Source: Methylophaga frappieri
Lineage (GTDB): Bacteria > Pseudomonadota > Gammaproteobacteria > Nitrosococcales > Methylophagaceae
Direction of reading: 5' to 3'
Assembly: GCF_000260965.1 (NCBI RefSeq)
Contig: NC_017856.1
Location: 1,470,001 to 1,502,000, forward strand
Length of the DNA: 32,000 bases
Shown: positions 27,535 to 28,335 of the stretch, piece after piece
How positions within the stretch are numbered: position 1 is the stretch's first letter
Layout: every line of letters begins with the position of its first letter
Made by a program: the position numbers and the translations under genes
Notes under the pieces: model-generated
What the model was told of the DNA's origin: nothing
The model's database searches: none
The model's input: the letters and a program-made list of their open reading frames with translations, nothing else

Positions 27535-28335
27535 TTGAGGAAAAGTATTTTTTTAAGCCATACGCACGCCGATAAGCCGTTCGTTCGGAAGCTGGCTTCT
27601 GATCTCGAAGCACATGGCATTCGGTATTGGCTAGATGAAGCCGAAATTAAGGTTGGCGAATCCCTCATTGAAAAAATACGCCATGGTCTGGATACCGTAG
27701 ACTATGTTGCGGCAATTCTTTCGCCAAATTCCATTGCATCCCCGTGGGTTCAGCGCGAACTAGATGTGGCGATGAATCAGGAGATTTCAGGACGCCAAGT
27801 TAGGGTTCTCCCAATCCTGTATCACACGTGTGAACTGCCTGGTTTCCTGCTAGGCAAGTTTTATGCGGATTTTACGGATGAGAAAAACTATCCTGCTGCC
27901 CTGAAACGCTTGGTCGAAAGCATCGGCGTAGTTTTTAATAAATCAGTACTCGATTCTGGGCGGGCGGGAGCGACTCTCGGTGAGGCTTTAGACAGGGCAT
28001 ACGTGTTTAATCTTCCTATGTTGGTTAAGCCTTTCCATAGGCCATTCCAATACATGGGTATGAACGTCAAAGAAGTGCACGAAATCGTTGGTGGGGAAAT
28101 GAATGAAGCCGGAAACATCATCGTAGAAAATGAGGAGTGCCGGATGTTTCTGGAGCGTGAGGGAAATTTTGTCAGCTACATTGACGTTGACCTGAAGCGA
28201 ACCGCCCCTTTTAATCAAAATCAGGAATTTGATCCTGAGCGAATGCTCGGGGCATTGAGCATCAATCCAAGCGAGCTTGATTTGGTTCGCGCGCAGACGC
28301 ACTGTCACACCTACTACGATCACAAAAAAAGATGA
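27535..28335 (+). CDS. cassette 9: TIR-domain protein with an uncharacterised C-terminal domain
   Basis: TTG start at 27535, 6 nt after the AAGGAG RBS; the track start at 27463 lies inside attC 8. IFLSHTHADKPFVRKLASDLEAHGIRYWLDEAEIKVGESL...AILSPNSIASPWVQRELDVA follows a bacterial TIR pattern. The Glu of W-x-x-x-E is at 27757-27759. Confidence 0.75.
   Translation: MRKSIFLSHTHADKPFVRKLASDLEAHGIRYWLDEAEIKVGESLIEKIRHGLDTVDYVAAILSPNSIASPWVQRELDVAMNQEISGRQVRVLPILYHTCELPGFLLGKFYADFTDEKNYPAALKRLVESIGVVFNKSVLDSGRAGATLGEALDRAYVFNLPMLVKPFHRPFQYMGMNVKEVHEIVGGEMNEAGNIIVENEECRMFLEREGNFVSYIDVDLKRTAPFNQNQEFDPERMLGALSINPSELDLVRAQTHCHTYYDHKKR

Follow-up and report, generated by a model that had tools for sequence, protein, structure and literature searches.

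A 32,000-nucleotide (nt) stretch of the Methylophaga frappieri genome (NCBI RefSeq assembly GCF_000260965.1, contig NC_017856.1, positions 1,470,001 to 1,502,000 of the forward strand), hereafter the window, carries an integron cassette encoding a protein that joins an N-terminal TIR domain to a conserved C-terminal domain (CTD). We propose, with a probability of about 0.45, that members of this TIR-CTD family are one-gene abortive-infection NADases in which the assembly of the TIR domain is controlled by the CTD. The proposal starts from the TIR fold with its catalytic-type Glu, the absence of a partner gene, the recurrence of the CTD behind effector-type heads other than TIR, and the transfer of the gene as an integron cassette, all of which were computed here. 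A TIR cassette in a chromosomal integron is an ordinary kind of feature; this one has an undescribed, widely reused CTD and lacks a partner. Phage defence is a plausible candidate role for the family.

A copy of the same cassette, 98% identical at the nucleotide level, is found in a contig from another sample (L116; Logan DRR482614) and encodes an intact 291-amino-acid (aa) product, P0220. With this copy as a reference, the parts of the window gene, including its open reading frame (ORF), are as follows; model confidence is given as the AlphaFold predicted local distance difference test score (pLDDT).

27523..27528, forward strand: Shine-Dalgarno-like AAGGAG, read from the sequence, six bases 5' of the TTG start and also present in L116
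27535..28335, forward strand: ORF as found in the window, 266 aa, from TTG 27535 to a TGA stop (ending at 28335) that stems from a frameshift
27547..27915, forward strand: TIR domain, residues 5 to 127 (Pfam TIR_2, E = 3.3e-31, 108.7 bits with a cut-off of 28)
27757..27759, forward strand: GAA codon of Glu75, the catalytic-type Glu of W71-x-x-x-E75, from the alignment with homologs and with AbTir and BtTir
27916..27972, forward strand: start of the variable interdomain linker (residues 128 to 146), with low identity and low pLDDT
27973..28332, forward strand: the part of the CTD that is in frame with the start, residues ~147 to 266, delimited by DUF4365 fusions and pLDDT
28324..28330, forward strand: A7 homopolymer, the site of a 1-nt deletion (A8 in L116)
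28329..28409, forward strand: the rest of the CTD in the -1 frame, KMKVTVMCTYDGAPISVAFSSKYYGM followed by TAA, its translation being identical to the C terminus of P0220 and matching the family consensus

A longer start at GTG 27463, which would give a 290-aa ORF, was rejected: it enters an attC site, and the homologs have no such extension.

The solved proteins nearest in sequence are the TIR domains of BtTir, AbTir, PdTIR, and TcpB (E = 3e-14 to 3e-9 against the PDB). The segment W71-V-Q-R-E75-L-D of the window ORF aligns with the W-x-x-x-E-L motif of these domains. Glu75 falls on the Glu of the AbTir and BtTir segments "WTNYELD" and "WTEYELN" and is invariant in 60 of 60 full-length homologs. 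The predicted model superposes on AbTir (7uxu) with a target-normalised template modeling (TM) score of 0.77, and Foldseek comparisons with solved TIR domains give target-normalised values of 0.77 to 0.83. Matches in PADLOC and NCBIfam are to the TIR parts of defence proteins only (PDC-S66, ThsB, bSEFIR, SAVED-TIR, and retron RT-TIR). The fold and the Glu together place the protein among TIR-type enzymes, and cleavage of NAD+ is predicted on this basis. Thus, the first-pass annotation, which had recognised a bacterial TIR in residues 1 to 135 and a catalytic-type Glu at 27757-27759, was right in both respects; the motifs that it quoted are present, and the loss of the Glu from homologs, which it had named as grounds for giving up its proposal, is not seen. 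A TIR protein without the CTD, 60% identical to residues 5 to 121, is encoded on Agrobacterium Ti-type plasmids (e.g., NC_002377.1, 122988-123341).

Mean pairwise identity within the family is 72% in the TIR domain and 70% in the CTD core, compared with 48% in residues 131 to 165 (the linker); the pLDDT of the linker is 51 to 58. The full-length AlphaFold model has a mean pLDDT of 80, with values of about 90 in residues 170 to 290, which are predicted to form an alpha/beta domain, and cyanobacterial fusions of the CTD with DUF4365 match residues 147 to 291 only. Judged by the 291-aa homologs, the CTD therefore measures about 145 aa (residues ~147 to 291) instead of the ~130 aa given in the first-pass annotation, which had been unable to place it. 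That difficulty proved genuine. There was no Pfam match to the CTD even at E <= 10 over 41 diverse members and none in NCBIfam or PHROGs; the PADLOC matches were confined to the TIR domain, with none over the CTD; and comparison of CTD sequence profiles with the PDB returned nothing below E = 0.3. With a CTD-only model, the best Foldseek match had E = 5e-3 and a TM score of 0.38; this model is weaker than the same region of the full-length one (pLDDT of 74 versus ~90), so that the structure search of the CTD is not exhaustive. The Foldseek and profile comparisons of the C-terminal region that had been called for thus assigned it to no family or structure.

Several specific candidates for the CTD were considered. 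The HIT/HINT fold was rejected, as the Foldseek matches had E ~0.06 and TM scores of 0.25 to 0.3, hhalign gave a probability of 10.6%, and the HxH motif is not kept across the CTD family. The motif "IGMSxxEAxxxxG" prompted a comparison with BLIP and BamE, in which "IGMSxxxA..G" fell in register with "FGMTRQQV..AG" of BLIP at an hhalign probability of only 0.3%; BLIP and BamE entries were absent from the top 50 Foldseek matches of the CTD, and SmpA_OmlA was absent from the weak Pfam matches. This likeness is kept as a tentative lead. An internal duplication was rejected (hhalign of the two halves, probability <= 1%). An APAZ domain, suggested by long Foldseek alignments to SPARTA, was rejected because the query-normalised TM score is 0.39 with a root-mean-square deviation of ~20 Å and the TIR domain alone superposes. 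The HxH motif is striking in the TIR proteins but is not conserved in the wider CTD family, where near-invariance is confined to P, N, L, K, C, and Y residues; this pattern makes it unlikely, as far as sequence conservation can tell, that the CTD is an enzyme.

A search with the CTD profile against 1.84 billion representative proteins yielded 99 clusters (at 50% identity), in which the CTD is always C-terminal. Classification of 64 representatives of the CTD family by the region ahead of this domain gave the following distribution.

TIR: 5 clusters
DUF4365, with a visible D...E-x-K motif, ~20 cyanobacterial loci: 1 cluster
Ser/Thr kinase: 1 cluster
Zinc ribbon plus a transmembrane segment: 9 clusters
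Other internal transmembrane segment: 9 clusters
N-terminal signal peptide or transmembrane segment: 19 clusters
No hydrophobic segment above the threshold, several resembling borderline signal peptides: 20 clusters

In three representatives, the CTD is preceded by DUF4124. A pair of Cys residues is retained in 35 of the 37 membrane or secretory representatives and in the kinase-CTD protein, and it is absent from 4 of the 5 TIR clusters and from the DUF4365 cluster. On this distribution, the CTD is likely an extracytoplasmic, disulfide-stabilised domain that was later recruited onto cytoplasmic effector heads. The joining of the CTD to DUF4365 nuclease-like or kinase heads fits a "module plus effector" design. 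A bolder extension, which we regard as tentative and somewhat improbable as a whole, is that the CTD is an undescribed ligand- or protein-recognition module of disulfide-bonded extracytoplasmic origin, which, without the Cys pair on TIR and PD-(D/E)xK heads and with it on a kinase, would have given rise to new one-gene abortive-infection systems that spread across phyla as integron cassettes and prophage accessory genes.

Individual members of the wider CTD family include P0134 (411 aa), in which the CTD ends a Ser/Thr kinase whose kinase part matches models of defence kinases, namely MADS6 (E = 1.5e-40) and BREX PglW (E = 2e-20); P0122 (317 aa), in which it ends a DUF4365 nuclease-like protein common in Nostocales; and P0125 (227 aa), in which it ends a zinc-ribbon membrane protein. 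When the full-length model was compared with BFVD, the top match (E = 4e-6) was a myovirus protein of 246 aa named "zinc-ribbon domain protein" (A0A8S5S7E6), which, to go by its length and name alone, may be of the zinc ribbon-transmembrane-CTD type.

All-against-all clustering of the ORFs that flank the gene by up to 3 kb at 80 genomic loci revealed no conserved partner gene. The largest cluster of neighbours comprises 5 of the 80 loci, all of them reflecting synteny in Nostoc, and the 133 neighbouring ORFs taken from 36 TIR-CTD loci contain any one Pfam family at most 4 times. ThsA-type, SLOG, Macro, and caspase-like neighbours are absent from all 80 loci, and PADLOC has no match in the other cassettes of the window. 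The observation of the first-pass annotation that the TIR protein is alone in its cassette thus holds well beyond the window. With no neighbour family shared between loci except through Nostoc synteny, the TIR-CTD family appears to act alone or with unlinked host factors.

The genomic settings are varied. In a lambda-like prophage, the gene lies in the accessory region between the lysis genes and a KilA-N gene. At this locus (L001), a 145-aa, multi-pass-looking membrane protein is encoded at 5567-6004 and ends 4 nt inside the TIR-CTD start codon region, an overlap that suggests translational coupling; as a partner this protein was rejected because it is not conserved at other loci. In a Delftia island, the gene stands beside a Septu PtuA gene (E = 1.5e-141) and an HNH gene, near a NERD-UvrD helicase; in an Alcanivorax array, an HEPN_AbiU2 gene comes next; and some other neighbours match GajA, mad3, Old, or AbiLi. 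In Reinekea (L020) and Chromohalobacter (L021), full-length IntI homologs are encoded no more than 6 kb from the TIR-CTD genes, and IntI fragments are found at the Methylophaga and Nostoc loci. The Chromohalobacter and Limnobacter loci also share attC similarity with the window. One viral contig (L088) holds a full-length copy. The family spans Proteobacteria, Cyanobacteria, Chlorobi, Bacteroidota, and other phyla at 63 to 87% identity, which points to horizontal transfer and to purifying selection on both domains.

In the window, the cassette is delimited by three features.

19952..20908, reverse strand: intI, the integrase gene heading the cassette array (Pfam Phage_int_SAM_4, E = 1.9e-25; Phage_integrase, E = 6.5e-13)
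27430..27519, forward strand: attC of the preceding cassette, belonging to the repeats that end in GCGTTAGG; the 5' edge of the TIR cassette is marked by the R' core of this attC, GTTAGGT (27513-27519)
28431..28513, forward strand: attC of the TIR cassette, with R'' ACCTAAC at 28431-28437 and R' GTTATGC at 28507-28513, from repeat family D1 and a scan for R''/R' complementarity

The intI gene is on the strand opposite to the array, and its product is 64% identical in its N terminus to a fragment in Methylophaga sp. OBS4. The ORFs after intI are on one strand and are set apart by attC-type repeats, which end in GCGTTAGG or GCGTTATG. Counted from intI, the TIR gene comes ninth among these ORF units, in agreement with its initial description as the ninth integron cassette. 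The bottom strand of the upstream attC forms a long imperfect hairpin that joins both ends (z = -2.55), and the minimum-energy fold of the downstream attC is not better than those of shuffled sequences (z = -0.13). Our home-made attC detector recovered only some of the sites and gave false positives outside the array, so that its output serves as supporting evidence only. Comparison with L116 is the strongest evidence that the cassette is a unit. The similarity starts at window position 27510, at GGCGTTAGGT; upstream of the equivalent point, the cassette in L116 is another one, with a gene for a DUF6119 protein, and the downstream attC is shared as far as the end of the L116 contig. There is thus an array beside intI, with attC sites on both sides of the gene and the same unit seen elsewhere with other neighbours. 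Integron cassettes are documented carriers of defence systems (preprint 10.64898/2026.03.17.712381, citing Kieffer 2025 and Darracq 2025); the word "TIR" does not occur in a preprint on mobile-integron defence.

Among the best 120 homologs of the window ORF, nearly all are exactly 291 aa long and cover the whole query, at 63 to 87% identity. They end in ...YYDHKKKLKVTVMCTYDGGPISVAFSSKYYGM, whereas the window ORF ends in ...YYDHKKR. The end of the gene at 28335, accepted in the first-pass annotation, proves to be the result of a 1-nt frameshift that had been overlooked and that cuts off 25 conserved residues. These residues show 73% mean pairwise identity, several being nearly invariant, and form two predicted beta-strands of the CTD in the full-length model. 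Other homologs have A runs of 2 to 7 at this site, mostly interrupted by G. The odds are roughly even between inactivation of the window copy and a sequencing error in the homopolymer of a gene that is in fact intact. The annotated 266-aa protein of this genome is a truncated product, worth checking against the reads.

It is accordingly an even bet that the window copy is dead through a genuine 1-nt deletion in an A8 run and represents a decaying cassette in a silent position of the array. The run is A7 in the window and A8 in an otherwise 98%-identical cassette, the missing residues are conserved and supply two strands of the CTD sheet, and broken family members are known from five other loci (L055, L059, L060, L063, and L064). 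Besides, the gene is in the ninth cassette, with no sigma-70-like promoter site seen upstream of it, and the domain matches of ten housekeeping genes in the window are full-length, which mildly disfavours a generally error-prone assembly riddled with frameshifts. On the other hand, a single-base difference in a homopolymer is a typical sequencing or assembly error, and the 78 nt that are out of frame in the window are still identical to those of the intact copy, so that any inactivation must be recent. An exact-allele scan of the JGI metagenomes for A7 or A8 copies gave no match. As the death of the window copy would concern this copy alone, it is compatible with the explanation proposed for the family.

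For the family, the proposed mechanism would run as follows. TIR-CTD proteins are cytoplasmic, 291 aa long, widespread, and horizontally mobile; in each, a variable linker connects the TIR domain at the N terminus with the conserved CTD. The CTD would hold the TIR domains apart or inactive until a cue, which may be a bound ligand, a phage product, or a changed assembly, alters its state. The TIR domains would then associate and build a composite active site around Glu75, and the assembled TIR would hydrolyse or cyclise NAD+, stopping the growth of the infected cell. NADase activity, CTD-controlled assembly, a trigger, and a phage phenotype would all be expected of such a system.

Several observations weigh against this mechanism. 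At least 37 of the 64 representatives have a signal peptide or a transmembrane segment before the CTD, and a domain found mostly behind such segments is no sensor dedicated to phages inside the cell. In its degree of conservation, the CTD equals the TIR domain (70% versus 72%), unlike fast-evolving phage-binding sensors. No model of the defence libraries covers the whole protein, and many neighbours of the gene are housekeeping genes, so that its association with defence genes is modest. Full-length copies number 0 in 50,697 sequenced phage records and 1 in 72,556 plasmid records. Finally, the copy in the window carries the frameshift and lacks a promoter-like site that would belong to it alone. 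The description of the protein as a compact sensor-effector, offered in the first-pass annotation, therefore stands in part: the "module plus effector" layout is seen in the CTD proteins with nuclease-like and kinase heads, but sensing and defence found no support, and the location and conservation of the CTD agree no less well with a generic module for binding or assembly.

Another role for the CTD, which is the main rival to control of TIR assembly and which we consider distinctly less probable, is that of a constitutive scaffold for assembly or protein binding that senses no trigger. Its task would be to keep the attached heads (TIR, nuclease, or kinase) or periplasmic proteins in oligomers or bound to a partner, and the TIR domain would be controlled by expression level, NAD+ concentration, or an unlinked inhibitor. 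Besides its degree of conservation, the occurrence of the CTD on both sides of the membrane and with very different partners argues for this role, as does the apparent lack of an active site, given the nearly invariant P, N, L, K, C, and Y and the unconserved HxH. TIR NADases are known to need self-association from the work on AbTir, SPARTA, and TIR-SAVED, which also favours a scaffold. However, a constitutively assembled NADase should be toxic, and yet no antitoxin-like partner is conserved.

Abortive infection by a single protein also has to be weighed against a split, Thoeris-like system, in which the TIR domain would generate a signal, such as an isomer of cyclic ADP-ribose (cADPR), for an effector encoded elsewhere in the genome. 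AbTir and BtTir make cADPR isomers, and the TIR domain matches ThsB models at E = 3e-13. This alternative is improbable, since neither the 80 loci nor the other window cassettes hold any of the effector types listed above and since a gene that moves alone between phyla cannot depend on a cognate effector; moreover, the Pfam ThsB_TIR score is below the cut-off (16.7 versus 21.2 bits). Finally, that slipped-strand mispairing, transcriptional slippage, or -1 ribosomal slippage on A7/A8 serves as a switch that toggles a potentially toxic TIR gene is very improbable, even though the two alleles differ at this site only, the shift needed is -1 on a run of A, and the window lineage has the longest A run in the family, because just two alleles have been seen in all, the run is broken by G in most homologs, and the metagenome scan yielded no further copy.

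If the family does protect against phages, it would be a very compact TIR system (291 aa) with a new control domain, small enough for a single cassette. Knowledge of the ligand or the assembly of the CTD would explain how one module gates TIR, nuclease, and kinase.

The remainder of the array and its surroundings offered some additional observations. The attC sites at 21563-21650 and 26601-26688 are 95% identical over 88 nt, far closer than other attC pairs, so the cassettes concerned may be related or may have arisen by recent duplication. In the second cassette, the attC (22561-22645) is 92% identical to the sequence downstream of the TIR-CTD gene in the Chromohalobacter integron (L021, 7663-7747) and 82% identical to a Limnobacter site (L010, 9236-9314), and near-identical attC sites are thus shared between distant genomes. 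The fifth cassette (24357-25154) encodes a DUF5677 protein (Pfam, E = 6e-25); apart from it and the TIR protein, no product of the array's cassettes matches a family significantly. A cassette at 25244-25886 has two overlapping small ORFs (101 and 119 aa) on the minus strand, opposite to the rest of the array, which is a typical layout for the toxin-antitoxin cassettes that chromosomal integrons carry; the 101-aa ORF has no sequence match in the PDB. The product of the cassette directly upstream of the TIR gene (26670-27425) is 251 aa long and is matched by nothing in Pfam, PADLOC, or the PDB; it contains R-N-S-L-V-H, an R-x4-H motif like those of HEPN nucleases. The cassette after the TIR gene (28532-29636) has two ORFs of 185 and 187 aa with a 17-nt overlap, so that it holds either two genes or one more gene broken by a frameshift; PADLOC matches neither of the ORFs, and the first, the one searched against Pfam, has no match there. 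PDB sequence searches with two neighbouring cassette proteins gave no matches. The integron is inserted beside a UbiD-family decarboxylase gene, and near it is an operon for a soluble NAD-linked formate dehydrogenase, with 2Fe-2S thioredoxin-like, Nuo51-type, and molybdopterin subunits and FdhD; the decarboxylase gene and the operon together take up window regions 10608-16347 and 18448-19920.

Comparison with known systems sets TIR-CTD apart from each of them. The closest solved TIR domains, those of AbTir, BtTir, and TcpB (PDB 7uwg, 7uxr, and 4c7m; E = 3e-14 to 5e-10, ~30% identity), share the W-x-x-x-E motif, but in these proteins the TIR domain is C-terminal, after a coiled-coil or other region, whereas here it is N-terminal and is followed by the CTD. 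TIR-SAVED, TIR-STING, SPARTA TIR-APAZ, and Cat1 CARF-TIR are alike in domain logic, with a TIR NADase head and a regulatory assembly domain. However, the CTD alone matches none of the domains of these sensor-fused effectors, and there are no cyclase, prokaryotic Argonaute (pAgo), or CRISPR genes nearby. Specifically for CBASS and Pycsar, the CTD has no SAVED, STING, or cNMP-binding match (Pfam, E <= 10), and no cyclase occurs among the neighbours; for SPARTA, whose TIR-APAZ was ranked first by Foldseek through superposition of the TIR domain alone (query-normalised TM score of 0.39), the CTD alone has no APAZ match, and no pAgo occurs among the neighbours. Thoeris ThsB likewise has a TIR domain with a catalytic Glu, and PADLOC ThsB models match at up to E = 3e-13. 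TIR-CTD differs in its extra conserved CTD, in a Pfam ThsB_TIR match that is below the cut-off, and in the absence of an adjacent ThsA-type effector at any locus, with no SIR2/SLOG, Macro, or caspase-like gene in the 80 loci, among the most frequent families of the 133 neighbours, or in the window cassettes.

The closest parallels are with systems that consist of a single gene. Like TIR-CTD, the SEFIR-domain defence protein bSEFIR is the product of one gene, with its TIR-superfamily domain at the N terminus and a C-terminal part to which no function has been assigned, and the PADLOC bSEFIR model matches residues 3 to 130 (E = 3.5e-12). This match spans only positions 39 to 180 of the 412 in the profile, the C-terminal parts are unrelated, and the protein here has 291 aa; because the matches to the bSEFIR and ThsB models are confined to the TIR domain, TIR-CTD is neither of the two. 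Evangelion is described as a one-gene, NAD+-depleting system that acts by abortive infection and is built of a DUF4062/TIR-like core and an auxiliary region (10.64898/2026.06.25.731849). It resembles TIR-CTD in its N-terminal TIR-like, NAD-depleting core, in a C-terminal auxiliary region, which is needed for Evangelion defence, and in its mobile carriers. In contrast, the core in the window is Pfam TIR_2, with DUF4062 absent from the Pfam matches at E <= 1; the auxiliary region of Evangelion is described as diversified, whereas that of TIR-CTD is a single, highly conserved domain; and Evangelion is found on resistance plasmids, whereas TIR-CTD is found on integrons and prophages. By analogy, TIR-CTD would work most like these two one-gene TIR-superfamily systems, bSEFIR and Evangelion, while being a member of neither.

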